Source: Gemmatimonadota bacterium
GTDB taxonomy: Bacteria; Gemmatimonadota; Gemmatimonadetes; Palauibacterales; Palauibacteraceae
Assembly (NCBI GenBank): GCA_965116475.1
Contig: OZ220691.1
Span: forward strand, 672,001-736,000
Length of the DNA stretch: 64,000 nt
Direction of reading: 5' to 3'
Shown here piece by piece: positions 35,723 through 62,902 of the stretch. Within the stretch, counting starts at the first letter, position 1; each line of letters opens with the position of its first letter. The notes under the pieces are model-generated. The model did no database searches. It was not told the origin of the DNA and worked only from the letters and a program-made list of their open reading frames with translations. The position numbers were made by a program, and so were the translations under genes.

Positions 35723-36367
35723 TCAGCGGTCGATCAACTTTTCGAGGTCGCCATCGGAGGCGGCGCCGACGTGCCTGGCGCTGCCTGACACGAAGGTCGG
35801 GGTGGCGGTGATCCGCCAGCGGTCGGCGAGCGCGGCGTCGCGGGCGAGGCGCTCGGTCGTCGCGGCCGAGTTCAGGCAGAGGGCGAAGGGCGTTCCCGCG
35901 GGAACGTCCGCCGCCACCGCGACCGACTCCCAGTCCACGTCTCCGGTCTCCCAGTCATCGTTCGTCATCAGGTAGTCGTGCATGCGCGGGAACGTTCCGT
36001 GCTTCTCGGCGCAGATCGCGGCGCGTGCCGCCTGGGCGGAGCGCTCCGAGAGGGGCACGTGTACGAGCACCACGCGGACTTCGCCCGAGGCGACCCACCC
36101 GTTTACTGTCTCGTGCGACGAACGGCAGAAGGGACACAGGTAGTCGCTGAACTCGAAGATCGTCTGCGGGGCAGCCCCGCTGCCGAGCGCACTTCGCCGA
36201 GCCGCGGCGGCCTGTCTCCATTCCTCGCGATACAGCGCGAGCACCTGCCGCTCGGCCTTCCACTCCCGCAGGCGGCCGCCGACGACCCCCGATGGGCGGA
36301 AGGCGATCACCGCCAGGAGGATGCAGCACACGGCGAGACCGATGTCCTGGATCCCGGGGCGCTTCAT
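35723..36367 (-). CDS. DsbA-family thiol-disulfide oxidoreductase
   Basis: N-terminal TM, EFSDYLCPFC, ATPTF. ATGA overlap with the propeller gene. Confidence 0.88.
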   Translation of the reverse strand: MKRPGIQDIGLAVCCILLAVIAFRPSGVVGGRLREWKAERQVLALYREEWRQAAAARRSALGSGAAPQTIFEFSDYLCPFCRSSHETVNGWVASGEVRVVLVHVPLSERSAQAARAAICAEKHGTFPRMHDYLMTNDDWETGDVDWESVAVAADVPAGTPFALCLNSAATTERLARDAALADRWRITATPTFVSGSARHVGAASDGDLEKLIDR

Positions 36368-37668
36368 GTCCCCGGCGCCCTCGCGCCCGCGGGCAGCGGG
36401 ACGATCAGGACGTGTTCGACATCGAATTCGTCCCGTACCACCCCCACCGCCTCCGTGTCGTCGGCCCACAGCAGGTCGAAGCCGCCGGGGAACCCGACGT
36501 TCACGGCGGGGCTTCCCGGCCCGGCGTACACGCTCCAGACCGAGACGTCGTCTTCACCGCGCGCGGCGTCCGGTCGCGGCCGGTAGCCCGTCACCCAGAC
36601 GCGCCCGTCGGCGCCCGCAGTCACGGACCCCAGGGGCGGGAAGGAGTCGGGAAACGCCCACACATCGAGCGTGGCCGCGACACGGTCCCGCATCCCCGGC
36701 GGCAGAAGGCGGTTCATCTCGGCGCGGATGGGGACGAGCGCCATCTCCCGGTCGTCCGCGGTCACGGGCATCGATGGGAGGGAGAACTCGACCGGAGCCA
36801 GCGGGGTGCCGCCGGGCGTCACCCGCTCCGCGCGCGGACGTGCCGTGGACCCGAAGAGGACCACCGAATCGCGCGGCAGTACGAACGGCTGAGGCGAGAA
36901 CGGAATGCGGCCCGAGATGTACGAGTCTCCGGGATAGTTGAAGACCCGGATGCCCGTGGTCTCGGCGATGGGGTCGAAGCCCGTGCCGTCGGCCGATGTC
37001 AGGAAGATGACGATCTGCAGGGGATGAGACTCGCCCATCTCGTCGACGGCCCGGTCGGGCCTCGGCACCGCCCACACCAGCCGACCGTCGTTCAGGGCGC
37101 CCCGCAGCCGCGGGGATTGCAGGGTGTCCCCCGGAGGGATCGCGACCCCGACGCGTCGCACATTTCCGCCGGTGTACGGCCAGATGGACGCGCCTCCCCC
37201 CGCCCCGTCGTATACGAGCACGGAATCGCCGCGGTATTCGAAGAGCGCCGTCAGTTCCCCGAGTTCACGCGGACCGCCGCCCACGCCGCCCCGCGTGTCG
37301 CGCCACGCCCCATCGAGCGTGAACGTGCGCAGCGTGGCGTCGCCGCGGTTCGCCACCACCAGCACACCGGCCGACCGGTCCACGATGACGCCGGCGATGT
37401 CATGGAAATCCGTCTGCCCATCCCCGGACGCCCCGGACGCGCTCCCGAGCCGCAGGCGGGGCGACCCCGCGCGAAGATGCGCGGGGCCCGCTCCGAGGTC
37501 CGTTCCGACATCCGTTCCGACATCCGTTCCGAGGTCCGCTCCCGGTTCCGCCGAAGCGACCGTATCGGTACGGCTGTCCCCCTCCAGGCATGCGGCAGCC
37601 ACCATCGCCGCCGCGAATGTCGTCCAGTGCCGGGGCCGCATGCGGCCCCCCGTCGTCTTGAGCCTCAT
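36364..37668 (-). CDS. 6-bladed beta-propeller lipoprotein
   Basis: Lipobox AAAC, GGVGGGPRE, DSFP...DGRVWV, C-terminal RDEFDVEHV. Confidence 0.75.
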   Translation of the reverse strand: MRLKTTGGRMRPRHWTTFAAAMVAAACLEGDSRTDTVASAEPGADLGTDVGTDVGTDLGAGPAHLRAGSPRLRLGSASGASGDGQTDFHDIAGVIVDRSAGVLVVANRGDATLRTFTLDGAWRDTRGGVGGGPRELGELTALFEYRGDSVLVYDGAGGGASIWPYTGGNVRRVGVAIPPGDTLQSPRLRGALNDGRLVWAVPRPDRAVDEMGESHPLQIVIFLTSADGTGFDPIAETTGIRVFNYPGDSYISGRIPFSPQPFVLPRDSVVLFGSTARPRAERVTPGGTPLAPVEFSLPSMPVTADDREMALVPIRAEMNRLLPPGMRDRVAATLDVWAFPDSFPPLGSVTAGADGRVWVTGYRPRPDAARGEDDVSVWSVYAGPGSPAVNVGFPGGFDLLWADDTEAVGVVRDEFDVEHVLIVPLPAGARAPGT

Positions 37669-37684
37669 GTGATCACCATCACCG

Positions 37685-37957
37685 TTAGGGTAGATCGGGA
37701 TCGGAAGGAGGGCCCCAGATGGGAAAGAGGCATCCCCGCACGCACTCGTTGACCTCGTAGTTGCAGCCCCATTCACCGTCCAGGACGCAGTCCGCCCATC
37801 CCCGATAACAGTCGCTCACGCAGTCGCCACCGCCGCGCGCGGACGCGGCCCGGCCGGGTTGCGCCAGGATGGCCGTGGCCAGCACGAGGTTGAAACCAAG
37901 GAGTACCCAGCGTCCCGCTTTCGTTCCCGCTCTCGGTCCCGCTTTCGTCGTCTTCAT
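37685..37957 (-). CDS. Small secreted Cys-rich peptide 1 (90 aa)
   Basis: Purine-rich RBS and signal peptide. Mature region has Cx3Cx6Cx7Cx6Cx3C. Confidence 0.75.
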   Translation of the reverse strand: MKTTKAGPRAGTKAGRWVLLGFNLVLATAILAQPGRAASARGGGDCVSDCYRGWADCVLDGEWGCNYEVNECVRGCLFPIWGPPSDPDLP

Positions 37958-38238
37958 CGTCCCCTCCCTCTCCCGGGTTGTCGGAAGGCCGGGTCGCGGC
38001 CGCCAAGATCGTCGGCGCGCCCGTCGCGACCCTCCGGGACGGACCCTCCGTCCCATGCCTTCCGAGATTCACCTCCAGAATCCCCCGGGCTATCAACGGG
38101 CTATCAACTCCCGCACGGCCGGCGGGCAACCGGGCGGACGCCGGACAGGCGGGCGCACGCCGGGCGGCACTCGCCTGCCCTTCGCACGCCACGTATCGTC
38201 GGAACCTCACGGAACCTCGGGACGACAGGAGGGCCTGG

Positions 38239-39099
38239 ATGGCGGATGTGCTTTGCATAGGCGGGACGGGGACCGTCGGGAGCCGGGTCGTCGAGGGCCT
38301 GGTGGCCCGCGGCGCATCGGTCCGTTGCCTGACGCGCTCGGCGGACGGCGCGCAGGCGTCGACGGAGGGAGTCGAATTCGTGCGAGGCGACCTGGAGCGG
38401 CCCGACACGCTCGCTCCGGCGCTCGAAGGCGTGTCGCGCCTGCACCTCCTCACCGCGCTCCACCCGCGGGAGGCGCAACTCGGGATCGGGGCGGTCGATG
38501 CGGCCGCGGAGGCCGGCGTCGAGCGGATCGTCTTCCATTCCGCGCACCGCGCGCACGCGGCGCCCCACATCCCCCACTTCGCGAGCAAGATGGAGATCCT
38601 CGCCGCGCTCGAGGCCTCCGGCGTCCCGTGGGCCACCATCGAACCGAACCACTATTTCCAGAACGACCTGTGGCTGCGGCGGTCGCTCGAAGCCGGGGTC
38701 TACCCCGCGCCGCTCGGGGGCGCGGGACTGCACCGGGTCGACGTCCGCGACATCGCCGACGCCACCGTGAACGCGCTCCTCGACGACGGCCACGAGGGGA
38801 TCCGGCATCCGGTGGTGGGACCCGAACTCCTGACGAGCGCGGATGTCGTCGGCACCTGGAGCGAGCACCTCGGCCGCGAGATCGAGTACGTGGGCGACGA
38901 CCTCGACGCGTGGGAGGCGCGCGCCGGTCGGCACCTGCCGGACTGGCTCGTGAGGGACCTGCGCGTCATGTCGGAGTATTTCCTCTCCGACGGGCTCATC
39001 GCGACGGAGGAGGACTTCGCGACGATGAGCCACGTGCTGGGCCACGCGCCGCGCGTGTTCGAGGACTTCGTGCGGGAGACGGTCGCGGCCTGGCGCTGA
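38239..39099 (+). CDS. NmrA-like NAD(P)-binding protein
   Basis: AGGAGG RBS, CIGGTGTVGS Rossmann motif, VDVRDIA. Confidence 0.88.
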   Translation: MADVLCIGGTGTVGSRVVEGLVARGASVRCLTRSADGAQASTEGVEFVRGDLERPDTLAPALEGVSRLHLLTALHPREAQLGIGAVDAAAEAGVERIVFHSAHRAHAAPHIPHFASKMEILAALEASGVPWATIEPNHYFQNDLWLRRSLEAGVYPAPLGGAGLHRVDVRDIADATVNALLDDGHEGIRHPVVGPELLTSADVVGTWSEHLGREIEYVGDDLDAWEARAGRHLPDWLVRDLRVMSEYFLSDGLIATEEDFATMSHVLGHAPRVFEDFVRETVAAWR

Positions 39100-41084: not shown

Positions 41085-42197
41085 TCAACCTGGCTTCTCC
41101 ACGCGCACGCTGAGCTTTGCGATGCGCCACGGCGGGAAACTGCTGTTCTGGAGAAGATAGAGATGCCTGCCACCCCCCAGGACCCTCGAGTCCTCCGGCA
41201 ACGGCACCTCCTCGTACAGCTTGCGGCCCGTGTGCCGGTCGTAGATGTCGAGGGATGAATGATACTCCCCGAAGGGTCCGCCGGACTCGGGGTAACCAAA
41301 ACGACCATGCACCACGACGAGATGGGAATCCACAACTGCGATGTGCGAGATGGTGCCGCGCCCTCCGAGCAGTTCTGGCATCTGCGTGGGGTATGCGCCC
41401 GGGTTGAAGGCACCCGGCTCGAACACGGGGATCGGATCGAACGTGGAGGGAGGAACGCCGATCTGGCCGATCGAGTCGCCTGCGGCGTTCAGAATCGTCA
41501 CCGGGTAGCGCAGGGAATACGCCATATAGATGGAGTCGCCCGCTACGTCGAATGAGAAGCGCACCAGCGACGCCCAGTACGGTCTCTCCACGGGAATGAA
41601 CGGGAAGGTATAGCCGCTCCACGCTATCTCGTCAGCTGCCAGCCGATGCAGCAGTCGAGGCTGCTGCACGAACCGTGACACACCCTGAGTCGCCTCCGTG
41701 AAGAGCTTGATCCCCACCAGCAGATCGGAACCGATTTGTTCAATCCCTGACGGGATACCGGGGAGTTGTACGATGGTATCCGGCACGAGGTTCGCCGTGA
41801 GGTAGGTGAGGCGCGGCCCGGAGCCCAACACGGCGACCCGCCCCCTTGCGGTCTCGGTCAAGCCGTTGATCCTCCGGAACTCGAACGGGCCGTCGCCGAA
41901 TCGACCAAAAGCCGCCTCGAGCCGCCCCTGTGCGTCGTAGCTGCGGACCCTGGGGAGCTGCCCCTCGCCAAGCAGGAAGCCACCATCGGCCCGCTCCTTA
42001 AAGATCCCCGGAGTCGCGATCGAATCCTGCGGATTCTCGCTGAGCGTGATAATGACTTCGGTCTCGAACGCCTCATCGAGCGCGGCCCGCAGTGGCGGCA
42101 ACGGGTCGGGCGCCCTCCCGCACGCCAGGAGGGGCAAGACGGCCGCGCACGCCATCGTGCGGAGCGCACCGGCTCGTTCGCGGGCGAGCGTAACCAC
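41085..42197 (-). CDS. 6-bladed beta-propeller lipoprotein
   Basis: LLAC lipobox, FGRFGDGPFEF, C-terminal FPPWRIAKL. Confidence 0.78.
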   Translation of the reverse strand: MVTLARERAGALRTMACAAVLPLLACGRAPDPLPPLRAALDEAFETEVIITLSENPQDSIATPGIFKERADGGFLLGEGQLPRVRSYDAQGRLEAAFGRFGDGPFEFRRINGLTETARGRVAVLGSGPRLTYLTANLVPDTIVQLPGIPSGIEQIGSDLLVGIKLFTEATQGVSRFVQQPRLLHRLAADEIAWSGYTFPFIPVERPYWASLVRFSFDVAGDSIYMAYSLRYPVTILNAAGDSIGQIGVPPSTFDPIPVFEPGAFNPGAYPTQMPELLGGRGTISHIAVVDSHLVVVHGRFGYPESGGPFGEYHSSLDIYDRHTGRKLYEEVPLPEDSRVLGGGRHLYLLQNSSFPPWRIAKLSVRVEKPG

Positions 42198-42200: not shown

Positions 42201-42461
42201 CTATCGAACCACGATTTCCGGGATGCAGCACATCTCCAGCGCCGTGTAGCACGACCAGCCTCCGCATTGCCCGTCCCAGGGATCGCGGTGTTCCAGATCC
42301 ACGCACGGGCTGCCGAGTTCGTCCTCCCACTCCTCGACGCACGGATCCGTGCCCTCCTGCCCATCCAGCGCCGCCGGACCGACGGTTGTGGATGCGACGG
42401 CGAGTATGAAGGCCACCGCCAGCGCGGTGGCGATACGTGTGAACAGTGCGAACTTGTCCAT
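42201..42461 (-). CDS. Small secreted Cys-rich acidic peptide 2 (86 aa)
   Basis: AAGGAG RBS and signal peptide. Mature region has Cx11Cx12Cx4Cx6CC. Confidence 0.78.
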   Translation of the reverse strand: MDKFALFTRIATALAVAFILAVASTTVGPAALDGQEGTDPCVEEWEDELGSPCVDLEHRDPWDGQCGGWSCYTALEMCCIPEIVVR

Positions 42462-42473: not shown

Positions 42474-43076
42474 TTACGGATTCGAGGATTGGGTACGTAT
42501 GAGGCCCGTCGTGAGCGTCCCTCGTAGCGCGCCCACTTGGGCTTCGAAGCTCCAGCCGCAGTCCGAGGCGGCGGTCCTGGAATCGGCCAGCACCACGACT
42601 CCGGCACCGTCAACGAGAAGCTTCGTGTTAGGGAGAAGCGGACCGAACACAGCTTCCAGATCTTGTCGCGACGCTAAGGTGAACGTCGTGCCGCGAAGCG
42701 CCCGTCGCGCCTCATCGGGCACGTCATGATCACCGAACACCACGACATGGCGCTTCAGCAAAGGATCGTCCCCAAGAGCATTCCACACGGCGACCCTGGC
42801 ATTCAAGCAGGTCCGGCACCGCGCGAGATCGACGATCCAAAGCAGGTGAGCGTCCGCGGCGTCCGGTCTCTCGAGATCGAATGAAGACAGGGATACCGAG
42901 GTTCCGACCAGACGATCCCGGACGTTCGCCCGCTCGACCAGCGGGGTCGTCAACTGCAGCTTCGCCACAAGCTCGCGGTTGGATGAGGCCACGCTCCAAA
43001 CCAAGACCGCTCCGCCGAGTACCAGCCCGAATACGGCCAAGTCCAAGAGCGGTCTAAGGGACTTTCCTACCACCAC
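42474..43076 (-). CDS. Membrane-anchored thioredoxin-fold protein (CxxC)
   Basis: N-terminal TM, DLARCRTC, LPNTKLLVDGAGVV. Confidence 0.65.
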   Translation of the reverse strand: MVVGKSLRPLLDLAVFGLVLGGAVLVWSVASSNRELVAKLQLTTPLVERANVRDRLVGTSVSLSSFDLERPDAADAHLLWIVDLARCRTCLNARVAVWNALGDDPLLKRHVVVFGDHDVPDEARRALRGTTFTLASRQDLEAVFGPLLPNTKLLVDGAGVVVLADSRTAASDCGWSFEAQVGALRGTLTTGLIRTQSSNP

Positions 43077-43248: not shown

Positions 43249-44460
43249 CTAGCGCACGATTTCGTAGTGCACGACGTAGGGGATGTCGAGCGCGTCCACC
43301 TCCACCACCCAGGCTTCGTTCCGGTTCGCGTAGTCTATGTGCCACGTGGCGGGTAGCCGGAAGCGGCCGATGGAAGCCCCCGACGCATCGAGCACGAGCC
43401 ACTCACGCTCGCCGTCTTCGTCCAGGCCGGCGATCCATGCGGTGCCGTCGCTGCCCACCACGACGTAGGCAACGGGAGGAAGATAGCGAGTTTGATCGAA
43501 GAACTCGCGTACGGCGTTCGTAAACGCACGCCGGCCAGCTACGACTTCAGACGTCTCCGGATAACCGAACATCTTCTCGATCTCGCCATCGTAGTAGCCG
43601 TCCGGGACGGGGCGCGGTGGATAGGCGAGGCGACGGTGGAACAGGGTGTCGCCGTTTGAACCCACCATTGTCACGCCGAACTCGGCGGGGCCTTCGCCTG
43701 CCCACGTCGCGCCGTCGACGACCACTGCGCGCGACCTGTCCGGCGCGAATCGCCATACGTCCCCTGTTTCAATGGGGTGACCCAGGCGCACCGTTCCATC
43801 TTCCACCAACCCGGCCGAAACCTCGACTGAAGTCGGCACCGACAGCAGCGCAAGCGTGTCGAGCAGGGCGCCCGCCGTGTCCAACACCACGATGGGTACG
43901 GTCGTGAGGATCCCTTGCTCGGGAGCCCCTTCGGAGGGCCGCCCGGCGGCCGCTGTGCGTGATCCGGACAGCGCGACGACCGGTACAAGTCGTGCCGTTC
44001 CGTGCGCGTCCGGTGAGTACGCATGGTAGGGGATCGTCCTCACCTCACCGGTGACAACATCATAGAACGTGAAGCGCCGCAGTTCTGCGTCCCCGATCGA
44101 TAGGATCCCCGGTTCGATCCACCCCATCGTCGTCGGGCTTGCCAGTTCGCCGGGGCCCGACCCGCGGCGCCCGAGGTCGCGAACGAACTCGCCGTCACGA
44201 GTGAAGACCCGGATCATACCATCCCGTGCTAAGACGACGTACACATGGTCCTGGTCGGCCAACACCCCGCCGACGGCCCAGAGTCCCTGCACCGGATCAT
44301 CCGAGCTTCCGATGGCGAGACCCCGCCGCAGGGTCCACTCCGGTATCTCGCCGATCCCCTCGTCCGACGCGGGGGCGGCGCAGGCGAGCGCCATGGTCGC
44401 AAGGAAGACACTCCCGGCAAGTCGTCGCGACGCACCCATGCGGGCGGAGGTCTTCGTCAA
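43249..44460 (-). CDS. 6-bladed beta-propeller lipoprotein
   Basis: ALAC lipobox, GRRGSGPGE, DGTAWI, C-terminal DALDIPYV. Confidence 0.8.
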   Translation of the reverse strand: MTKTSARMGASRRLAGSVFLATMALACAAPASDEGIGEIPEWTLRRGLAIGSSDDPVQGLWAVGGVLADQDHVYVVLARDGMIRVFTRDGEFVRDLGRRGSGPGELASPTTMGWIEPGILSIGDAELRRFTFYDVVTGEVRTIPYHAYSPDAHGTARLVPVVALSGSRTAAAGRPSEGAPEQGILTTVPIVVLDTAGALLDTLALLSVPTSVEVSAGLVEDGTVRLGHPIETGDVWRFAPDRSRAVVVDGATWAGEGPAEFGVTMVGSNGDTLFHRRLAYPPRPVPDGYYDGEIEKMFGYPETSEVVAGRRAFTNAVREFFDQTRYLPPVAYVVVGSDGTAWIAGLDEDGEREWLVLDASGASIGRFRLPATWHIDYANRNEAWVVEVDALDIPYVVHYEIVR

Positions 44461-44537
44461 CAGCTCTGCGCGGTCAGCAACCCCGCGCGGAACGCAAGAA
44501 CGAGAACCGTGAGGCCTGGACCGCTACCGTGATTCAC
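44457..44537 (-). pseudogene. Collapsed propeller gene (signal peptide fused to the last codons)
   Basis: VNHGSGPGLTVLVLAFRAGLLTAQSC* matches the 48243 signal peptide GLTVLVSALCTGSLTAQ. SC* matches the family C-terminus. Confidence 0.55.
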
Positions 44538-47170: not shown

Positions 47171-47181
47171 ATGCTGCATAG

Positions 47182-54052: not shown

Positions 54053-54365
54053 TCAGCAACTTCGGCGGGACACGTCGGCCTCGAGCCGCAGCGTCATCAC
54101 GTAGTCGATGCCCAGGGGATCGGACGCCACGGCGTGGATGACGCCGGAGGGGCCGACCTCCGTTACCGCCACGGGGTAGGGTACGGAGGCCGAAAGGTCG
54201 AACAGGCGCACGTCCTTCCAGCCGGGGTCGAGTACGTAGATTCGACCGGCTGAATCCACCGCGAGATCGTGGATGTCACCGAACACATCGGGTCCCGACC
54301 CCTCGGCACGCCCGAGGCGTGACTCCTCGACGAGTTGAAACTCGCCGGCCTGGGCGGCAAGCGAA
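54053..54365 (-). pseudogene. Internally deleted duplicate of propeller 44572..45621
   Basis: Near-identical DNA at both ends. The middle is lost (RLFD|LSASVPY), and so are the RBS and start codon. Confidence 0.85.
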
Positions 54366-54377
54366 CGGCACGATAAG

Positions 54378-54408
54378 GTATGGACTCTGCCGACGCTCGG
54401 AAGGTCAC
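54378..54408 (-). promoter_or_regulatory. Putative ECF promoter (copy D)
   Basis: GTGACC-N17-GTCCATAC, a duplicate of copy A. Confidence 0.7.
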
Positions 54409-54457
54409 GAGGTTGGCGTGCGGCCAAGGCCGGACCTCTCTCGGCAGCGACGTCAGG

Positions 54458-55081
54458 CTACTTGGTCCAGACGACAACCACGCCGCATTGCGAATCGGAC
54501 CCGCCGAACTCGGCCGGTAGGGATGCCGCCCCCTTGTAGACCTGTAGCTCGTGCCGCCCCGCCGGCACGCCGGTCAGCCGGAAAAAGCCCTGCCTGTCGC
54601 TTCCGGCCTCCGTCGGCCGGCCGACGACGCTTACAGCCGCCGTCGGCACGGGACGACCGGTCTCCGTGTCGACCACGCGTCCGATCAGACGTCCCGACCG
54701 CACCGAACTCAGGATGCGCAGGCGGACCTCTCGCTCCTCCCCGGCTACGATGCCCTCCGGCGCCGCCTGTCCGCTCGAATGATCCCCGAATTCCGCCCAC
54801 ACGACCGCCTCACTCGCGTCGCGCGGAACGCAAACCCGAAGACGGCCATCTGCATCCGTCGCCTCCCGCACCGGCATGCGTTCCGCATCGGTCCAGCGAA
54901 GAACCACCGTGGCCCCAGGCAACGCGATGCTCCCGTACTCGTCCAGCACGGTGACGAGAAGCGAGGCCCTGTCACCGCAGTCTCCCTCCTGTCCGGCCGC
55001 CGCTTCGAAGCTCACTCCGATCAGCGTGATGAGGGTGACCACCCGCGCCACCCAGTACTGTTTCAGGTCAGGCATGTGCAT
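54458..55081 (-). pseudogene. Internally deleted duplicate of plug-only protein 45750..46769
   Basis: In-frame junction RHELQV|YKGAASLPAEF removes most of the plug domain. Confidence 0.8.
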
Positions 55082-55189
55082 CCTCGGTAGGCGGCATCGT
55101 CGAACGTTGCTCGTGCCGGCTCAAGGTCCCATATCGTTTCTCCCGTTACCGCCGAGCGGCTCCGTCTCGATGGGATGCGACGTGTCAAC

Positions 55190-55220
55190 GTATGGACGCG
55201 GCAAACGACCGGCAGGTCAC
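55190..55220 (-). promoter_or_regulatory. Putative ECF promoter (copy E)
   Basis: GTGACC-N17-GTCCATAC. Confidence 0.7.
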
Positions 55221-55290
55221 GAAAGTCAGCAAGGCGTGATGGCGTCCGGGTCGGGAGATCGCGGCGCACCCATTAGGGCGGAGGTCTTCG

Positions 55291-56589
55291 TCAACTCGGC
55301 AGCCCTCGACATTCGCGACCGGGTGCAGCGGCACCGTCGTTTCGTTCGAAGACGCTCACATAGGATTCGCCAAACGTTCCTACCGACGTGGTGAGAACGG
55401 ACGAGCGGGTTGCGTGCAGGAAGCGATGACCCTCCGGAAGCTCCATCACGCGCGACGTTCCCTCCTGCGGCCGGACTGCGACCCACGACCTCGACCCCTC
55501 CTCGTCCCCGGCTTCCAGTTGCAACCACAGCTCGCCGGGAACCCCGCTCCTGATGCTCCGTACCGGAAGCAGGACATCCCGCGCGGGTACAGCCAGTGCT
55601 CTTTCCCGCAGTGTTTCAGACACCTGCGACAACAGTGGTGTGGTCGACTGCAGATAGTCGTACCGCTCGCTCCTCCTCCGTCGCTCCTTCTCTTCGATCC
55701 CGGCTGGCACCGGTGCGCCCTCCAGACCCAGGTGGATCCGCGTCGCTACCGTCCCATCTCCTCGCATACCGACTACAGATGCCTCAGCTGTGTCGACGAG
55801 ATACAGAAGGTCGTCGTTCACCGTACCCAAGGTCGTCGCGCCGAACAGAACGCGCCCCGGTTGGATGCGGTCGCCGAGGTCCACGGAGTACATCTCGGCA
55901 CCGGGCACGTGGGCAAGAAGCGACCAGTCACCTTGCGGGCTTCGGCGCAGGTACCGAATCGGCCTTCGCCAGATACCTCGGCGCTGGCGGTCCGAGAGCC
56001 GTCCCATTTGGGTCTGCGAAGCAACCACCGACCCGTCCTCCAGGAGCCCCAGGCCCAGCGGGGGTGGCGGATCGAGAGAGTGAAGCGTCCTGCTTTCCAG
56101 AAGCTCACCGCCCGGCGACAGCTCGGACATGCGCTGCAGCAGCACGTCCCACACCCAGATCGTCCCGTCGCCGCGCAAACCCATATGGGTTGCCTGTCGA
56201 AACTCACCGGGCCCTTCGCCATCTCTTCCGACGACTCTGATCTGTCGCCCATCCGGTCCGTAGATCAATAGTTCGGTCCACCCGGACAGCACAGCGAACC
56301 GCCCGGATTCCAGGAGCAGCCCGGCCTGAACGCTTCGCATGGGCTCACCGGTATCGTCATCGAGCCCGCCGACCGTGAGGACATGTGTCACGCCGATCCT
56401 CGGAAGGTTGCTCGCCGGTCGCGGGTCGTTGTACGTCCAGACGCCCTCGGCGTCCACCGAGCACTCACCGGACAGATCCGAGTATTGGTCCGACGCAGGC
56501 GCATCGCTGGAACACGCAGCAGCACCAATCGCCGCACACAGGGTTGGGACCAAAACGGAGGACGAGAAACTCTTCTTGCGCCGTGCCAT
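55291..56589 (-). CDS. 6-bladed beta-propeller lipoprotein
   Basis: AAAC lipobox, VGRDGEGPGEF, GTIWVWD, C-terminal GTFGESYV. Confidence 0.8.
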   Translation of the reverse strand: MARRKKSFSSSVLVPTLCAAIGAAACSSDAPASDQYSDLSGECSVDAEGVWTYNDPRPASNLPRIGVTHVLTVGGLDDDTGEPMRSVQAGLLLESGRFAVLSGWTELLIYGPDGRQIRVVGRDGEGPGEFRQATHMGLRGDGTIWVWDVLLQRMSELSPGGELLESRTLHSLDPPPPLGLGLLEDGSVVASQTQMGRLSDRQRRGIWRRPIRYLRRSPQGDWSLLAHVPGAEMYSVDLGDRIQPGRVLFGATTLGTVNDDLLYLVDTAEASVVGMRGDGTVATRIHLGLEGAPVPAGIEEKERRRRSERYDYLQSTTPLLSQVSETLRERALAVPARDVLLPVRSIRSGVPGELWLQLEAGDEEGSRSWVAVRPQEGTSRVMELPEGHRFLHATRSSVLTTSVGTFGESYVSVFERNDGAAAPGRECRGLPS

Positions 56590-56596
56590 GAGCTGA

Positions 56597-57154
56597 TCAC
56601 CAGGGGTGAGAGGCTGGATCGTTGCGTCGGTGAGCATAGCCTGAACCGATGCGACCCTCCGTGATCCATCCGCCGGCGAACCACGTTCCGTCCGAAGCGC
56701 GCACGAGCGCTCCGGCGATCGGACCGTTCAGCGGGACGGTTTCGGGGTTCACTTCCGCCCCGGCTTCGATCTCCGGCAGGGACAACCGCGTGAGGCGCTG
56801 ATGGATGCCATCGAGGATCCAGACCTCGTCGGGCGATTCCGCAGCCCCGATGACGACCTGCTCCGGATCCTTGAACTCGCCCGGGCCGTCGCCCTGGCGG
56901 CCGTAGGAACCGAGGCGCCCCGGCGTCTCGAGATCGACGACGTGAACCGACGGCTCCAGCAGCGCGTCCAGCGCCACCACGCGGTCCCCAGCCAACGCGA
57001 TCTCAACGATCCAGCCGAGCGAGTCGTCCGCGAAGACGGCGTCCGGCGTCAACTCGGCCGGGCTGCCGGCATCGACCGTGGCCGGTTCCGCCTGACGACA
57101 GGCGCCGACCGCCAGAACCGCGACGGCCGACAGCCCGATCGCTGACCGCCTCAT
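56597..57154 (-). pseudogene. Truncated TolB/BF3164-like propeller lipoprotein
   Basis: VGAC lipobox, YGRQGDGPGEF. Only about 185 aa, with a non-propeller-like tail. Confidence 0.65.
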
Positions 57155-57164: not shown

Positions 57165-57371
57165 CTAGGGCTCAACACAGCGCGGCAGCCGGTTTCGCTC
57201 CTGCATGTCCGGGCAGATGCAGTCCACCTTGGATATGCTGCCGCACCCCTCTTCCGTACACGACGCGGCGGAGAGCCTGAGACCGACGGGGGCATCCGCA
57301 TCTGCGGTGACCGGAACAGCCGCCACGATTACCGCGAACGCTGCCGTGGCCAAGAAACGCTTGAAGCTCAT
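57165..57371 (-). CDS. Small secreted Cys-rich peptide 3 (68 aa)
   Basis: GGAGG RBS, MSFKRFLATAAFAVIVAAVPVTADA signal. Mature region has Cx4Cx7CxCx11C. Confidence 0.78.
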   Translation of the reverse strand: MSFKRFLATAAFAVIVAAVPVTADADAPVGLRLSAASCTEEGCGSISKVDCICPDMQERNRLPRCVEP

Positions 57372-59547
57372 CGTGTCCCTCCAGGTTCGAGTGTTGCCGG
57401 CTATCTGACCGGCGCCGGGAATCCCCCAGCAGAAGTGCAATACGTAGCGCGGGTGCGAGAGCCTCCCCGCGATATCGCAGAGTGCCGCCGCCGTCCACGA
57501 CGAAGAACTGCACCTCCCGCCAGGCGCGCAGGGCTTCCCAGACTTCGGAATGCCTGTCATACAGGAACGGGGGCATCTCCGGAGTGCCGTTCTCGGCGGC
57601 GGTCCGATCCTCGCTCCCGGAATCGGGATTGACGGTGACCAGCAACGCTCGCGCACCCGCGGCCGCCAGTTTCGATTCATTAGCCCTGAGTAGATCCAGA
57701 CTCTCCTCGGGGACGTAGCCCGGTCGAAGGGTCTGGATGATCAGCGTCACGTCGCCGCCGGTCACCTCGTGCAACGTCCTCTCTTCTCCAGAGGCAGTCT
57801 CGAGCCGGGCGCTTCCGTTGACCCACTCATCGAGCAGTGACGATGCCAGGTGCTCTCGCCATGCCGCGCGGGCTACGGCGCGAAGGGCTTCCGTCGGTGC
57901 GGTCGCCCAGTCTTCTCCCTCGGGCACGTAGGGCGCGAGCGGGATGACGGGGTCCGCCTGCGCGAGCGCCAGCAACTGGGCGGCGCGCGTCGATGACCCG
58001 GCCTCCGCGTGGAACCTCGCCAACTCCACGAACAAACGGGGATCCCAACTGAGTTCGCCGGCGCGCTCGAAGGCATCGAGCGCCCCCGCCCGGTCCCCGC
58101 GGTCCACCCGCAGCCGGCCGAGCAGCACGTGCAGGCGGGCCACACTCTCGGCAACCTCCGCCTCGAAGTTGGCTCGCGTGCCCGTCAGCGGCCGATCCGT
58201 GCCCAGCCAGTCCGGCTGCCCACTCAACTGCCGCAGGATCCACTCCTCGGCGATCGCCCCAAGAGCGGGCACCTCGGCCATGCGTTCCGTCACTTCGACA
58301 TCGAGCCGGGAATCTCGAAACACGGGATTCGCGGCGTACCTCTCAAGCCAGATTCCGGTAAGGGCAGGATCGGCCACCTCTTGGGCGAGCTGCAGCCCGA
58401 CCTGGGCCGCCGAGGGCATCGGCGCGAGCCTCCAGCTCCGGTCCAGCGCGTCCAGCTTTTCCGTGTGCGACGTTGACGACAGAAGGATCGACTCCAGCCG
58501 CACCTGCGACGCGTATTCGTGCCGTGGATGTTCGGCGGCGAGTTCGCTCCGCCAATAGGCCTCGATCTCCTCCCGGCCGAGGAGGCGGGCGTAGAGGCTC
58601 AGGGCGTACATTTCGCCCGGTTCGGAGTCTCCCTGCCGCGCCGTCGCGTCCATCCGCTCAAGACGCCGTAGATGCGCGTTCCGCGGGGTCTCTCCCGGGC
58701 CCCCGGGAGCCGCCCCCTCCTCGTACAGGAGGAGAGATGTCCATAGCTCGGGGCGCTCGGGGTACTCCGACAACCCGCGCTCGATCGTCTCAACGACCCG
58801 CCGGGGGTTCAAGCGCGAGGTGGCCAGCACCTGGTACAGGCGGGCGTCGAGCGTCGCTCGGCCCTCCGCGTCCGTCTCGAGGTACTCCCACGACCGGCCG
58901 AAATCGCTGTCAATGTAGTTTCCGTCCAGATCTTCGACGGCCGCGGCCGCGTACACGGTGCCGGGGGGCAGAGCGACCGTTCCGGAGAACACGCCGGGTT
59001 CCTCCCGGGAGAGTTCGACCACGCGGTATCCGGGTTCAGTCTGGGCGAAGCGGAGCGGGTCGGGCACCCAATAACGCAGCCGCGCCCGGAGGCCGGGCTC
59101 CACCGCCAGCGGCGAGACCGTCTCGTACTGGAGCGTGAGTGCGCCCGGTTCCTCACCGTGGAATCGCAGAGTGCTCGCACCGGCCATGGCCCGCTCGGGT
59201 CCAAGCGTCAACACGAGGACTGCCGCGATCCCTGCCACCACGAGGGCCCCTGCCGAGACGGCCAAGGGTCGGGAGGACGCAACCGGCTGCATCTGCGAAA
59301 CCACCAAAGGGATCGTGGCGGTATTGCCCGCTTTCTTCGGGTAAATCTCTTCGAACAATCCATCCGGTGGCTTCAGCGTGGGAACGGCGCGGAGTGCCGC
59401 ACTCAACTCGCGAATGAGCCGGACCTCGCGCCGGCAGACCGCACACGAACGAACGTGTAGCCGCACGGCAGTGGCCGACGGTTCGGGCAGCACCCGGTCC
59501 GCGTAGCGGTTCAGTGTCTGATCGTCGATCTGTGTGCAGGATTCCAT
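57172..59547 (-). CDS. Large zf-HC2 anti-sigma factor with TM, repeat-like and thioredoxin-like domains
   Basis: HVRSCAVC (HxxxCxxC), one TM, TPR-like helices, C-terminal AhpC/TSA-like PFLYD...FFVVDGGGTLRYRG. Directly after the ECF gene. Confidence 0.8.
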   Translation of the reverse strand: MESCTQIDDQTLNRYADRVLPEPSATAVRLHVRSCAVCRREVRLIRELSAALRAVPTLKPPDGLFEEIYPKKAGNTATIPLVVSQMQPVASSRPLAVSAGALVVAGIAAVLVLTLGPERAMAGASTLRFHGEEPGALTLQYETVSPLAVEPGLRARLRYWVPDPLRFAQTEPGYRVVELSREEPGVFSGTVALPPGTVYAAAAVEDLDGNYIDSDFGRSWEYLETDAEGRATLDARLYQVLATSRLNPRRVVETIERGLSEYPERPELWTSLLLYEEGAAPGGPGETPRNAHLRRLERMDATARQGDSEPGEMYALSLYARLLGREEIEAYWRSELAAEHPRHEYASQVRLESILLSSTSHTEKLDALDRSWRLAPMPSAAQVGLQLAQEVADPALTGIWLERYAANPVFRDSRLDVEVTERMAEVPALGAIAEEWILRQLSGQPDWLGTDRPLTGTRANFEAEVAESVARLHVLLGRLRVDRGDRAGALDAFERAGELSWDPRLFVELARFHAEAGSSTRAAQLLALAQADPVIPLAPYVPEGEDWATAPTEALRAVARAAWREHLASSLLDEWVNGSARLETASGEERTLHEVTGGDVTLIIQTLRPGYVPEESLDLLRANESKLAAAGARALLVTVNPDSGSEDRTAAENGTPEMPPFLYDRHSEVWEALRAWREVQFFVVDGGGTLRYRGEALAPALRIALLLGDSRRRSDSRQHSNLEGHDELQAFLGHGSVRGNRGGCSGHRRCGCPRRSQALRRVVYGRGVRQHIQGGLHLPGHAGAKPAAALC

Positions 59548-59558: not shown

Positions 59559-60092
59559 CTACTGCTCGAACAGCTCGGCGCGAAGCAGCTTCCGCGCCTT
59601 GTGCAACCGCGACTCCGAGGTCGAGCGCGAGATCTGGAGAAGCTCGGCGATCTCCTCGTGCGACCACCCCTCGATCTCCTTGAGAACGACAACGGTCCGC
59701 AGTTCCTCCGTCAGCGAAGACAGCGCTCGCTCCACTGCGATCGAGTTCAAGACGGGGATTTCCGGCGACGTGACGACCTCCCCTCCATCGGGCGCCGCCG
59801 CCATCGCAGTCTCGTCTCGTCGCCGCTCCGACCGGACGTGTCGGAGGGCGACGCGAGCCGTCACGGAACGAAGCCAGGGGCCCAGCGACCGCTTGCCATC
59901 GAAGCGCCGAAGCATCTCGGGAAGGTCGCCAAAGACATCGTGTAGTACATCCCGAGCATCGGCAGACGACTCCGTCAAACGATACGCCACAGCGAACAAC
60001 GGCTTCGCGTACTCCTCGTACAAGGACTGCAACGCACGGCGATCGCCGCGCGCCGCCCTACGCGACAATCGCCTCTCCCGGGCCGCGGTCAT
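59559..60092 (-). CDS. ECF RNA polymerase sigma factor
   Basis: GDRRALQSLY, DARDVLHDVF, WL, region 4 VVVLKEIEGWSHEEIAELL...SRLHKAR. An in-frame extension to about 60254 is possible. Confidence 0.93.
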   Translation of the reverse strand: MTAARERRLSRRAARGDRRALQSLYEEYAKPLFAVAYRLTESSADARDVLHDVFGDLPEMLRRFDGKRSLGPWLRSVTARVALRHVRSERRRDETAMAAAPDGGEVVTSPEIPVLNSIAVERALSSLTEELRTVVVLKEIEGWSHEEIAELLQISRSTSESRLHKARKLLRAELFEQ

Positions 60093-60678
60093 CAAACCGC
60101 GCGACCTCCCGCAACCAGGCGTGCCTTCTTGACTCTCTCCACGGAGAATCTCTTTCTCGTCGTCGGGCCCCTGCGCCGGAGCCGATGCTCCCGGCGTGGA
60201 TCCTCCCTCTACAGTTAATTGCCCGCCCGAGGGCAAAACTTGCATCGCGTCCATCCGGCGTTTTTCGACGAAGATGGCCCTATGCGAAGGTTTTGCAATC
60301 GATAAGTATAGCGATGGCAACACGATAGGAGTGTGGAGGCTTCGGAAACAGTCATCGGAAATTGGACGGCGCTCGCTGCCGTTGGCACCTTGGCGACGCC
60401 GTCCTCGACCCGACGTGTCGGCAGCGTTCACCACCTGCCGGTGGGGCGACACGCGGCGGCCTGCCCCGAGCTACCGGGACAGGCCGTTCGTACGCTTCGA
60501 GTGGCTCCGCAGCGAGCTGTCTTGCGTGCGCGTCTAGCCGAGACGGATCACGCCGCGGCCGGGGTCGGGTCGCATGTTTTTCTCCTTTGAGGCATGTCGT
60601 TCGTCACCGAGAGCGCGCCAGAAAACGGCGCTCCCGATAACACAAACGCCTCCGGATCGAAAAACCTTACATCACGCC

Positions 60679-61716
60679 CTACTTCGTCCAGATCACGATG
60701 GCGCCGCAGCGTGTGTCGGAGCCGCCGAACTCGGCCGGAAGCGATGCCGGGCCCTTGTATACCTCGACTCCCGCGACCTCCACCGGAAGGACGAGAGTGT
60801 GGAGGGCGACGTTGCTCACATCGACGCTGTCGAGGAATGTCTTGATGTTGCAGCCGGCGCCTGAGAACCCGGCCGACAGTCTCGTGCTGTAGAACCTCCC
60901 GTCCCGTCCCAACCGGATTCCCGACATATCGGCGATCATGTGGCTGATGCGCTGCGGCCGCCGACGCTCGATGTCGGCGGCGGTGAAGAACGTGCCTCCG
61001 CTCACGAGTTCGCCCCACAGCTTCCGCTCGTAGAACCCCTTGATCTCCAGGCGGCGGGATCTCGTCACGGTCGCGACGAGCGGCTCCATTTCGACCGGCG
61101 TGGGCACCAGCCCGATCTCCACTTCCGTGGTGAGCCCGCGCGTCACCGTCACGGCGTGGCCAAGCGGGGCGTAGCCGATGTGTCTCACTTCCAGTTCGTG
61201 CTGCCCTTCGGGGACGGCGGACAGAACGAAGGCGCCGCGCCGGTTGCTTTGGGCCTGCCGGCCCCGACCCCGGACGGATACGGCGGCCGTGGCCACGGCA
61301 TCGCCGGTCACGCCATCGTATACCCGGCCGATGATCCGCCCCGCACGGACCGTCCCGATGAGGACCCGGAGTTCCACCTCGCGTACCTCCCCGGGTTCGA
61401 AGACGACGACCGCCTGCTCGCTCGACCCGTCCCCCAACTCGGCCCACAGCGTCGCCTCCTGCGCGTCACGAGGGACGCAGAGGAAGAAGCGGCCCTGGGG
61501 ATCGGCGGCTTCGCGCACTGGCCGCCGCCTCGCCCCGTTCCAGCGGAGCACCACGGTGGCCCCCGGCAGGGCGACCGTCCCGGATTCGTCCAGGACCGCG
61601 ACGCGAAGCGAAGCCCGGTCGCCGCATTCATCCCCGTCCTGCCCGACCGCCGGAGTCACGGCGACCCCCAGCAGCGACACCACCGCGATCGTCATCGTCC
61701 GTATCACTCGCGTCAT
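60679..61716 (-). CDS. Carboxypeptidase-regulatory-like + TonB-plug domain protein
   Basis: Signal peptide and the same architecture, ending CGAIVIWTK. Confidence 0.82.
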   Translation of the reverse strand: MTRVIRTMTIAVVSLLGVAVTPAVGQDGDECGDRASLRVAVLDESGTVALPGATVVLRWNGARRRPVREAADPQGRFFLCVPRDAQEATLWAELGDGSSEQAVVVFEPGEVREVELRVLIGTVRAGRIIGRVYDGVTGDAVATAAVSVRGRGRQAQSNRRGAFVLSAVPEGQHELEVRHIGYAPLGHAVTVTRGLTTEVEIGLVPTPVEMEPLVATVTRSRRLEIKGFYERKLWGELVSGGTFFTAADIERRRPQRISHMIADMSGIRLGRDGRFYSTRLSAGFSGAGCNIKTFLDSVDVSNVALHTLVLPVEVAGVEVYKGPASLPAEFGGSDTRCGAIVIWTK

Positions 61717-61745
61717 CTCCAGTGCATGGGCAAGGCGCTCCCCGT

Positions 61746-62861
61746 CTACTTCGTCCACACCACGACGGCGCCGCAGCGCGCGTCGGACCCGCCGAACTCC
61801 GCCGGGAGCGTGGCCGGCCCCTTGTACACTTCGACGCCGACGATCTCGAACCCCCGCAGGTTCCACCCGTCACGCCACTCGACCCCATCGACGAAAACCT
61901 TCACGCTGCACGTCAGGTTCAAGAAACCCGCGCTCATGCGCCGATTCCTCGGCGACCGCCAGGTGATCCCGGGGACGTTGTTTGCCACAAGGGAGCGGAC
62001 GTCCCTGGGTCGCCACCGCTCGATGTACTCGGGTGAGAAGAAGTAGCCGTTGCCGGTCAGCTCGCCCCAGTACTTCCGTTCGTAGAACCCCTTGATCTCG
62101 AGCCGGCGCAGTCTCGCCACGGTCGCCACGATCGGCTCCATCTCCACGGGCGTCGGCACGAGGCCGATGTCCACCTCCGTCGTGACGCCCGGCGTTACGT
62201 CGATCCGATGGCGGAGCGGGGCGTAGCCGATGCGTCGCACCTCCAGGTGACGCACGCCGGGCCGCACGTCGCTGAGGATGAACCTGCCCTGTCGGTTGCT
62301 CGCAGCTTCCGGCGCGTGACCGGTCACGGATACCGCCGCCGTGGCCACGGGGTTTTCCGTCAGCGCATCGTACACGCGGCCGATGAGGCGCCCCCGGCGA
62401 ACTTCGGACAGGAGCACCCGGAGTTCGACCTCCCGCACCTCTCCGGGCGCGAGGGCCACGGTCGCCTGTTCGCTCGAATCGTCGCCCAGTTCCGCCCACA
62501 GCACCGCTTCTTTCGCCTCCTCAGGGGCGCAGAGCAGGAAGCGCCCCTCCGGCCCGGCCGTTTCTCGCAGCGGCATCTCCTCGACGTCGGACCAGTGGAC
62601 CACGAGCATGGCGCCGGGGATCGGGATGTTGCCCGACTCGTCGACGACCGTCACCTGAAGGGAAGGCCGGTCCCGGCAACCGTCGTCCTGCCCCAGGACC
62701 GGGCCGGTCGACGCCGCGAGGAGGAGGGAGAAGAAGAAGAAGAGGGAGATGATGCGGCAGGTTCGCCGCGGGCGGCGTGGTTCGTAACGGGGAACTCCGG
62801 GTTCGTTGCCCAAGGCCGTTCCTTTCGCTCTGTCCCGCGCGGGTGCGCCCGGGCAGGACAC
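61746..62861 (-). CDS. Carboxypeptidase-regulatory-like + TonB-plug domain protein
   Basis: Same architecture, ending CGAVVVWTK. Confidence 0.82.
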   Translation of the reverse strand: MSCPGAPARDRAKGTALGNEPGVPRYEPRRPRRTCRIISLFFFFSLLLAASTGPVLGQDDGCRDRPSLQVTVVDESGNIPIPGAMLVVHWSDVEEMPLRETAGPEGRFLLCAPEEAKEAVLWAELGDDSSEQATVALAPGEVREVELRVLLSEVRRGRLIGRVYDALTENPVATAAVSVTGHAPEAASNRQGRFILSDVRPGVRHLEVRRIGYAPLRHRIDVTPGVTTEVDIGLVPTPVEMEPIVATVARLRRLEIKGFYERKYWGELTGNGYFFSPEYIERWRPRDVRSLVANNVPGITWRSPRNRRMSAGFLNLTCSVKVFVDGVEWRDGWNLRGFEIVGVEVYKGPATLPAEFGGSDARCGAVVVWTK

Positions 62862-62872
62862 ACGCCTCCAGG

Positions 62873-62902
62873 ATACGACGCCGCCAGTGGGCCCGGCGTC
62901 AC
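62873..62902 (-). promoter_or_regulatory. Variant putative ECF promoter (GTGACG-N17-GTCGTAT)
   Basis: Same spacing, upstream of the 62861 gene. Confidence 0.5.

Follow-up and report, generated by a model that had tools for sequence, protein, structure and literature searches.

The window analysed here, 64,000 nucleotides of the genome of a Gemmatimonadota bacterium (contig OZ220691.1), contains three gene groups, referred to as cassettes 1 to 3. In each of them the gene of a small, exported, cysteine-rich peptide lies immediately upstream of the gene of a propeller lipoprotein, with a thioredoxin-fold protein or domain encoded beside them. Genes were called by GC3 and a codon log-likelihood trained on the genome, and the Pfam scan of the window covered 30 open reading frames (ORFs) from 35.7-64 kb and 21 ORFs from 1-35.7 kb. 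Comparisons were made with the seven other genomes of the genus (the genus relatives) and with a phylum set of 201 genomes that includes the window's own (G000); none of the conclusions relies on the unpublished genome G097. Pfam and NCBIfam returned no match for the three peptides, for the propellers prop36364 and prop41085, or for the thioredoxin-fold protein trx42474.

Small cysteine peptides and their propeller neighbours

The three peptide genes all lie on the minus strand: pep37685 (37685..37957; 90 aa, six Cys), pep42201 (42201..42461; 86 aa, six Cys) and pep57165 (57165..57371; 68 aa, five Cys). Each is preceded by a Shine-Dalgarno (SD) sequence 6-9 nt ahead of its ATG (GGAGG for pep37685 and pep57165, AAGGAG for pep42201), each product begins with a hydrophobic signal-type N-terminus, and by codon usage the annotated frame scores best of the six for every peptide ORF. 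The three small ORFs are real genes; a first-pass annotation made from the sequence had described them with ribosome-binding sites, signal peptides and cysteines. Counterparts of pep37685 occur in 7/7 genus relatives (74-83% identity), of pep57165 in 6/7 (44-87%) and of pep42201 in 2/7 (42-47%). Alignments show the Cys positions of all three to be invariant across relatives. The uncorrected pN/pS values of pep37685 and pep57165 (0.58 and 0.54) indicate coding sequence under relaxed purifying selection.

Each peptide is single-copy in the genome, and blastp at E<=1e-3 detected no similarity among the three, which agrees with the annotation's remark that they share no obvious sequence. The framework of pep37685 is C-x3-C-x6-C-x7-C-x6-C-x3-C. 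Searched against 1.84 billion cluster representatives, its profile found only seven proteins at E<=0.001, and the six short ones among these have a common signal region and differing Cys-rich cores. The framework of pep42201 reads C..C..C-x4-C-x6-CC, and only Met1 and the six Cys are invariant in its 19-member alignment. For pep57165, 59 database clusters were found, from Candidatus Palauibacter or Gemmatimonadales and, where named, all called 'hypothetical protein'. The ESM Atlas gave only leads below 0.9 for pep37685 and no usable match for pep42201. A relative of pep42201 in a genome of another family (G159) adjoins trx and propeller matches; the other weak peptide matches outside the genus (E 0.004-0.008, some with stops) were set down to chance. 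As a side observation, the DNA of the 5' part of pep37685 (37858-37957) is nearly invariant over seven genomes (pS 0.065 vs 0.36 in the mature part), and this signal part may be under extra constraint from the divergent NmrA promoter region. Its n-region carries a duplication of about eight codons in the window's genome alone.

The distance from peptide stop to propeller start is 16 nt for pep37685, 3 nt for pep42201 and 10 nt for pep57165, and the propellers bear lipoboxes. The immediate adjacency described in the first pass holds. To put this arrangement into context, the propeller superfamily of the genome was collected with jackhmmer from the window's propellers, giving 59 ORFs in 3.62 Mb. 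A small ORF encoding a signal peptide and 4 or more Cys directly precedes 5/59 propeller ORFs vs 3/1896 other well-scoring ORFs (Fisher p=1.1e-6), and none of the three non-propeller cases resembles a secreted mini-protein. Under a slightly looser signal-peptide rule, the count rises to 6/59. The conserved layout thus exceeds chance, and the adjacency of peptide and propeller is real, non-random and conserved.

Three of these pairs lie outside the window, with peptides at 1565175-1565441, 2108713-2108967 and 2960813-2961085 (genome coordinates). Their peptides form one CX3C...CX3-4C family (31.6-36.4% identical mutually), and their propellers are mutual closest paralogues (29-41% identical). 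Among the peptides and among the propellers alike, A groups with C while B stands apart; judged by this match, CX3C peptide and propeller were therefore duplicated together, as a unit. Separately, a 116-aa signal-peptide ORF with two Cys and a coding score of 0.26 (G000:C1 1009912-1010262) lies directly upstream of the propeller 1008749-1009936 and may be a seventh pair with another kind of small protein.

Cassette 1 comprises pep37685, the propeller lipoprotein gene prop36364 (36364..37668, minus strand; lipobox VAAAC) and the gene of a membrane-anchored DsbA-like thiol oxidase with a CPFC motif (35723..36367, minus strand), whose start overlaps the prop36364 stop. The oxidase scores well over the cut-offs of PF13462 (68.7 vs 23.2 bits) and PF01323 (37.4 vs 25.6 bits). 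Assigned to the 59-ORF superfamily by jackhmmer, prop36364 is 24-26% identical to other propellers over 330-390 aa. The DsbA is 74-84% identical and cassette-adjacent in 7/7 genus relatives, and prop36364 and DsbA are syntenic in 5/7, the propeller being lost in G166 and G100. Two other Thioredoxin_4-type genes are present in the genome, and the DsbA of cassette 1 is therefore an extra copy. Cassette 1 forms an operon of its own and diverges from the operon NmrA-NfeD-SPFH; in every relative that has the cassette it is likewise separate and divergent from NmrA.

In cassette 2, the order is trx42474 (42474..43076), pep42201 and prop41085 (41085..42197), all on the minus strand, with the trx42474 stop 12 nt ahead of pep42201. 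The 52 homologues of trx42474 include none with a Pfam domain. Three of its cysteines are invariant (C87, C90 and C173), and the C87xxC90 motif, CRTC in the window, is invariant in 25 sequences. An AlphaFold2 model (pLDDT 82.3) has a long N-terminal helix over residues 7-56, and Foldseek returned 3hdc, ResA, TlpA, DsbE/DsbF and StoA, with probability 1.00 to 3hdc, ResA, TlpA, DsbE and StoA (TM 0.37-0.62). On this model, trx42474 is a TlpA/ResA/DsbE-like membrane-anchored thioredoxin fold. For prop41085, the AlphaFold2 model from a 43-relative alignment (pLDDT 85.9, pTM 0.85) predicts a six-bladed NHL-like propeller, and the lipobox Cys is invariant in all 43 sequences. Its best Foldseek match is 4raa (Bacteroides fragilis exported BF0058), followed by the NHL domains of TRIM2, Thin, TRIM71 and Brat (E 1e-10 to 5e-10, target TM 0.66-0.69); further matches are 3s9j (DUF4221) and, lower down, the lyase PAL (3fvz). 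The Pfam NHL repeat exceeds its cut-off only in prop47182 (22.9 bits vs 20). Complex predictions of prop41085 (residues 27-370) with mature pep42201 (residues 36-86), run without controls, scored 0.12, 0.47 and 0.12 and speak neither for nor against binding.

A wider survey, in which the prop41085 alignment was scanned against one genome per species, found 76 loci, nearly all from Longimicrobiales or Palauibacter metagenome-assembled genomes. In 18/76, a trx gene and then a pep42201-type peptide gene lie directly upstream of the propeller (at L045 the trx is split into two matches), and at six others there are trx fragments, or a trx for which no peptide was detected. Every genuine pep42201-family peptide found has a trx42474-family match directly upstream. 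Many of the loci are tandem propeller arrays with the trio at the visible head (L044, L046, L067). The trx profile was found in 9 of the 201 phylum genomes, and its matches adjoin a prop41085-like gene, sometimes as a fragment only, in 7/8 loci examined. In a quick tree of 71 propellers, for which five loci with a translated match below 280 aa were left out, the trio-bearing propellers are scattered across both deep clades, and this scatter fits an old trio from which trx and peptide genes were lost repeatedly. Besides its one intact trio, the window has what is left of another (53123-54025), which G166 carries in intact form. Transfer to Gammaproteobacteria, considered for prop41085 relatives on contigs labelled as Gammaproteobacteria (L055, L060, L066 and L075), was rejected; due to their very short branches inside Palauibacter/Longimicrobiales clades, mis-binning is likelier. 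As an observation on strain variation, positions 42450 and 42970 are directly joined in a contig from the sponge metagenome run X3, with 209 letters on one side of the joint and 239 on the other; in this related strain most of trx42474 is missing, and the remaining N-terminal anchor is in frame with pep42201.

Cassette 3 lies on the minus strand behind the gene of an extracytoplasmic function (ECF) sigma factor (59559..60092; Sigma70_r2 45.0, Sigma70_r4_2 61.3, TIGR02937 85.4 bits). The sigma gene is followed by an anti-sigma gene (57372..59547) that encodes a zf-HC2 domain (24.1 bits, cut-off 22.2), a transmembrane helix, a periplasmic TPR region and a thioredoxin-like C-terminal domain; the anti-sigma also matches NF052375 at E=1.5e-7, below that model's cut-off. 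Next come pep57165 and a propeller lipoprotein gene (56597..57154; lipobox VGAC). A tblastn comparison with the full-length G166 orthologue shows this propeller to be cut after residue 179 of 352. The three propeller lipoproteins of the first pass all carry a lipobox, but the third is truncated here and full-length in six relatives. Run X2 has a 7248-nt contig that is colinear over the truncation point. A nine-sequence profile of the anti-sigma tail (57427-57837) matched thioredoxin-like structures in the PDB (2cvb at E=1.7e-5, 2ywi, 3kcm, YkuV and 3hdc), and hhalign ruled out that it belongs to the trx42474 subfamily (probability 1.4%). The first pass had named a thioredoxin-fold neighbour for each peptide, and all three were borne out: the CPFC DsbA, the TlpA/ResA-like protein at 42474-43076 and this tail. 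Its further proposal, a dedicated oxidative folding factor for every peptide, is supported only in part, being plausible for the DsbA but impossible for the tail, which has zero Cys and, judged by its sequence, cannot be a folding catalyst for that reason.

As assembled, the anti-sigma ORF lacks a stop and overruns pep57165 in another frame. All contigs of runs X1 and X2 have four extra bases (1 + 3) at 57418-57420 compared with the window; read on unchanged frames, this shift would give a stop near 57401, as in the relatives. The natural stop is therefore probably near 57401, and the overlap is probably an assembly slip (an indel error) or a strain variant.

The gene sets co-occur beyond this genome. 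Sigma factor, anti-sigma, peptide and propeller are found as a unit in 6/7 genus relatives, the sigma gene of G177 lying beyond the stretch fetched. G100 carries three tandem sigma/anti-sigma copies (L026, G100:C3:100000-119999), and peptide and propeller come after two of these; behind the first there is only a CarboxypepD_reg-like remnant. Outside the genus, six loci that match the anti-sigma tail were examined. Three of them (L128, L129 and L138), from three other genera of the family, have the unit, in which an anti-sigma homologue (28-34% identical) precedes the gene of a three-Cys protein of 69-76 aa with a signal peptide, and a prop56597-like gene comes last. The order of anti-sigma, peptide and propeller is thus kept across four genera.

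The first pass had read all three cassettes as one ECF-controlled family, and this did not hold. The cassettes are not one ECF regulon, and only cassette 3 is physically tied to, and follows, a sigma/anti-sigma pair. Cassette 1 is the separate operon described above; in G152, cassette 2 lies on another contig than the sigma gene, and a sigma or anti-sigma match was found at 0/76 prop41085-related loci. The upstream sequence speaks only weakly against a shared promoter: aligned upstream regions of the relatives define a conserved block ahead of the sigma gene (60230..60242, minus strand), a weakly defined candidate promoter element, and a 13-mer search of the window found only the block itself (one mismatch) and a match at chance level (three mismatches).

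The paralogue array and strain variation

The G+C content of the window is 62-74%, with 42-62 kb lower (0.62-0.67) than the remainder (0.69-0.735), and the minus strand carries everything from 60092 down to 41085. Beyond cassette 2, 43249-57154 is a recombination-scrambled field of paralogues (GC 0.62-0.67) with at least six truncated or internally deleted genes. Pfam and blastp identify its propellers on the minus strand at 43249-44460, 44572-45663, 47182-48243, 51466-52704 and 55291-56589, and Pfam its CarboxypepD_reg/Plug-like proteins, also minus-strand, at 45750-46856, 49047-50186 and 50183-51664. Pairwise blastp traces deletions and truncations in minus-strand remnants at 46950-47144, 48296-49198, 53123-54025, 54053-54427 and 54458-55081. 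Read downwards from 60092, ECF sigma, anti-sigma, pep57165 and the propeller fragment are followed by the propeller 55291-56589, the remnants 54458-55081, 54053-54427 and 53123-54025, and the propeller 51466-52704. Then come three CarboxypepD_reg/Plug-like genes (the third, 48296-49198, 5'-truncated), the propeller 47182-48243, the fragment 46950-47144, the CarboxypepD_reg/Plug-like gene 45750-46856 and the propellers 44572-45663 and 43249-44460, and trx42474, pep42201 and prop41085 end the minus-strand run.

Seven propeller ORFs lie less than 3 kb from a detectable thioredoxin-fold gene, all of them in the window's array; the next, also in the array, is 3.4 kb away and the nearest outside the window 6.1 kb. 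By these counts, propellers with a thioredoxin-fold neighbour are confined to the three cassettes and their array; they refer to Redoxin, Thioredoxin_8, Thioredoxin_4, trx42474 and the anti-sigma tail, and divergent thioredoxin folds would be missed. Elsewhere in the genome, Redoxin/Thioredoxin_8 domains at G000:C1 274318-274659 and 276606-276953 lie inside long open frames (813 and 796 aa), which may be further anti-sigma-like or fused thioredoxin proteins.

The CarboxypepD_reg/Plug-like family (45750-46856, 49047-50186, 60679-61866 and 61746-62861) consists of exported proteins of about 370 aa without a beta-barrel, with an N-terminal Cys-containing domain, CarboxypepD_reg and a weak Plug-like C-terminus ending ...SDARCGAVVVWTK. 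Two of its members, 58% identical mutually (Pfam, blastp), lie upstream of the sigma gene on the minus strand (60679-61866 and 61746-62861). Remnants of the family are found at 46950-47144, 48296-49198 and 54458-55081, and tblastn finds about ten near-full-length copies elsewhere in the genome at 42-60% identity. Several stand directly ahead of propellers: 45750 before 44572, 48296 before 47182 and 54458 before 54053.

Array content varies greatly between genus relatives. The distance from pep37685 to pep57165 is 4.7 kb in G082, 11.5 kb in G177, 19.5 kb in the window and 30 kb in G058. In a sponge metatranscriptome (X4), contigs of a relative cover NmrA-NfeD-SPFH, the surroundings of 37679-37691, and 37939-38273, with next to nothing over cassettes 2 and 3; the library may contain DNA, and contigs cannot show transcription. 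Contig joints flanked by little sequence (43371->56645, 41039->55314 and others) were left out of the interpretation.

Interpretation of the cassettes

The window is best explained as carrying three architecturally parallel, non-homologous cell-envelope operons. Beyond this, we infer that peptide and propeller bind, that the peptide depends on its redox partner, and that cassette 3 has a signalling role. More specifically, a Sec-exported, fast-evolving mini-protein with a fixed Cys framework would be produced in translational coupling with an NHL-type six-bladed propeller lipoprotein. The disulfides of the peptide would be set or edited by the thioredoxin-fold protein of the operon, for which cassette 1 has an oxidase of the DsbA type and cassette 2 a membrane-anchored CxxC protein resembling TlpA/ResA. 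Once folded, the peptide would serve the propeller lipoprotein as a ligand or small subunit, either in the periplasm or at the outer membrane. Cassette 3 would be the signalling version, made up of the ECF sigma factor, the anti-sigma with its catalytically dead thioredoxin-like end, the odd-Cys peptide and the propeller; here the peptide, with the propeller, would be the sensory input read by the pseudo-thioredoxin domain.

That the peptide is a redox-matured ligand or small subunit of the propeller is, in our judgement, an evenly balanced proposition. Doubtful, on the data at hand, is the broader claim that the cassettes represent a widespread, undescribed class of envelope module, with a hypervariable disulfide mini-protein as NHL-propeller ligand, a thioredoxin-fold protein as its redox setter and, in the ECF version, peptide and propeller as sensory input to an anti-sigma with a dead thioredoxin domain. 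If true, sponge symbionts would possess a sensing system that works through peptides and reports on redox state, kin or host.

In favour of the ligand reading stand the excess of small Cys ORFs ahead of propellers, the joint duplication of the CX3C pairs, the constant trx neighbour of the pep42201 family, the joint retention of pep37685 and DsbA where the propeller is lost, the concentration of thioredoxin-fold genes near propellers of the array, the modelled folds and the recurrence of the cassette 3 unit. Several observations weigh against it. G166 has an intact pep37685 followed directly by DsbA, without a propeller, and G100 retains only a 47-residue propeller remnant along with peptide copies, one with a stop. 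Because both genomes keep pep37685 and DsbA after propeller loss, the peptide-DsbA link in cassette 1 is, judged by gene content, tighter than the peptide-propeller link. In the genome, 52-53/59 propellers have no peptide, and 58/76 related propeller loci have no trx-pep pair within 3 kb, some of these being inner members of tandem arrays. Several loci retain the propeller beside decayed trx fragments, from which it follows that the propeller functions without the other two genes. No thioredoxin-fold neighbour was detectable for the three CX3C pairs, the nearest such genes lying 7.7 kb and 11.7 kb away and, for the third pair, further. Furthermore, the characterised TlpA/ResA-type proteins are mostly reductants, not folding oxidases. 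On the evidence of gene content, the propeller, for which the first pass had proposed the part of a receptor, immunity protein or display platform, cannot be an obligate partner of the peptide in either direction, because two genomes keep pep37685 and DsbA without it and most propellers lack a peptide.

The same data can be read as a bacteriocin-like toxin/immunity system, in which secreted antagonistic peptides are matured by the thioredoxin-fold protein, the propellers confer immunity, and peptide-less propellers are orphan immunity genes against the peptides of neighbours in a crowded sponge community. The hypervariable core on a fixed Cys framework with a conserved signal region would suit such peptides, as would the trx-pep-prop-prop-prop arrays with a single head peptide (L044, L067) and the repeated decay of trx and peptide with retention of the propeller. 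The activity of bacteroidetocin also requires a dedicated thiol oxidoreductase, according to PMC6671954. However, the peptides have Sec signal peptides, a Gly-Gly leader is not conserved, and no C39/ABC exporter or other outer-membrane export gene lies in the window. An essential immunity gene should not permit the intact, propeller-less pep37685 of G166. The many invariant polar residues of the prop41085 family look more like a conserved activity than a diversifying binder, and pN/pS of about 0.55 does not indicate overall positive selection. We consider toxin and immunity unlikely.

A second alternative takes the unit to be only the peptide with its thiol-disulfide oxidoreductase (or anti-sigma), the propeller being a frequent but independent neighbour from an eukaryote-like NHL family that is hugely expanded in this sponge-associated lineage. 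With 59 propeller ORFs in a 3.6 Mb genome, common peptide-less tandem arrays, the persistence of pep37685 and DsbA without a propeller, and pep42201 never found without trx, such an arrangement is conceivable, and sponge-symbiont papers list NHL repeats among eukaryotic-like proteins. Yet there are six independent peptide-propeller junctions in four peptide families, with 3-16 nt spacers or overlaps; the enrichment is significant (p=1.1e-6); CX3C peptide and propeller were duplicated together without a thioredoxin-fold gene; and the order of anti-sigma, peptide and propeller is conserved in four genera. We consider mere neighbourhood quite improbable.

Least probable is a system akin to ribosomally synthesized and post-translationally modified peptides (RiPPs). 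In it the propeller would be a peptide-modifying enzyme, much like PAL, an NHL-fold lyase that works on the C-termini of peptides, and the thioredoxin-fold protein would keep the Cys state right for the modification. PAL (3fvz) is among the prop41085 structural matches, the peptides combine a conserved N-terminal region with a variable core, and the prop41085 family has many invariant polar residues. But that N-terminal region is an ordinary Sec signal peptide, the prop41085 alignment offers no invariant His that could bind zinc as in PAL, and a peptide is missing beside most propellers. Nor does the neighbourhood contain a further modifying enzyme, a protease or an exporter; the one radical SAM protein of the window is of the MiaB type (1249-2628), in line with the first-pass remark that no RiPP enzyme is visible.

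Comparison with known systems

The mau genes of methylamine dehydrogenase (mauA/mauB/mauD/mauE) bring together a small disulfide-rich subunit, a propeller large subunit and a membrane-anchored thioredoxin-like accessory protein. This is, to our knowledge, the one established case of a Cys-rich mini-protein as a propeller subunit. Its heavy chain is seven-bladed, its light chain contains a quinone that MauG forms from Trp, and the enzyme also depends on MauE. In contrast, prop41085 is modelled as six-bladed and NHL-like, and the Pfam scan found no cytochrome, MauG or MauE family in the region.

Cassette 3 resembles ECF sigma/anti-sigma operons with periplasmic modulators, such as RseA-RseB and CnrY-CnrX, in being a sigma/anti-sigma operon with extra exported-protein genes directly downstream. 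Unlike in these, the anti-sigma has a thioredoxin-like domain without Cys at its end, and downstream lie the genes of a Cys-rich mini-protein and an NHL propeller lipoprotein. No characterised ECF group with this gene set is known to us, although no dedicated search was made.

The cassettes of Bacteroidales with proteins of the uncharacterised Pfam families NVEALA (PF14055) and DUF5128/DUF4221, to which the first pass had likened the window, likewise place a small exported protein directly before a six-bladed propeller lipoprotein, and prop41085 has B. fragilis BF0058 (4raa) as its best structural match, with 3s9j (DUF4221) close behind. The likeness in architecture stands, but the peptides do not match PF14055: 0/3 window peptides did so at E<=0.01, and 1/19 of the pep42201 family at E=0.45, which is chance level. 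Among the propellers, prop51466 matches PF17170 (DUF5128; 39.2 bits, cut-off 22.9), and prop43249, prop44572 and prop47182 fall slightly short of the cut-off at 21.4-21.8 bits. Neither PF17170 nor any other Pfam family is matched by the three peptide-linked propellers, and PF17170 was found in 0/43 prop41085 relatives. The lineage also differs, being Gemmatimonadota and not Bacteroidota, and the analogy is best regarded as architectural only. In the literature searched, 'NVEALA', DUF5128, DUF4221 and PF17170 are absent, BF3164 appears once, in a 2007 phylogeny paper, and no description of a peptide/propeller/thioredoxin cassette was found. The words NHL, propeller, thioredoxin and bacteriocin are absent from the Palauibacterales description paper.

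A thioredoxin domain works with a six-bladed NHL propeller on the non-cytoplasmic side in NHLRC2 and SOQ1 as well. NHLRC2, of animals and some bacteria, combines a TlpA/DipZ-like thioredoxin with a six-bladed NHL propeller, with no conserved operon reported in 7 bacterial genomes (PMC6107167), and SOQ1, of the plant thylakoid lumen, acts on a protein substrate by thiol chemistry (bioRxiv 10.1101/2024.11.01.621559). Both have their domains fused in one polypeptide, together with a further C-terminal domain, and lack a small partner peptide, whereas the window has separate genes (42474-43076 and 41085-42197) with the peptide gene between them; fused forms were not searched for among longer proteins.

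Bacteroidetocin, a class IIf bacteriocin of Bacteroidales, needs a dedicated thiol oxidoreductase for activity, and shares with the window a small, exported Cys peptide encoded beside that enzyme in a diderm host (PMC6671954). In the window, the thiol oxidoreductases near a peptide gene are the DsbA at 35723-36367 (cassette 1) and the TlpA-like protein at 42474-43076 (cassette 2). Bacteroidetocin clusters encode a 5-TM protein and an ABC exporter with a C39 peptidase, their peptides have a Gly-Gly leader, and a propeller is absent. The window peptides, in contrast, have Sec signals, lack an exporter and are coupled to an NHL propeller lipoprotein; no ABC or C39 family was found among the 51 window ORFs scanned, and a GG before the core is not conserved in the 19-member pep42201 alignment.

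Bacteroidetocin, NHLRC2/SOQ1 and mau are the closest studied systems, by analogy only. In sponge symbionts, NHL propellers belong to the most expanded protein families, with 59 ORFs in the present 3.6 Mb genome, and a peptide partner would be the first experimental handle on them, possibly on NHLRC2 and SOQ1 too; all parts are small and expressible in a laboratory host. A dedicated thiol-disulfide oxidoreductase with a single Cys-rich exported client is known already, from bacteroidetocin clusters and MauD. The three-way module that adds an NHL propeller lipoprotein has not been studied before; it is present here in three non-homologous versions inside 25 kb, one of them wired to an ECF sigma factor via a pseudo-thioredoxin anti-sigma domain and kept across four genera.

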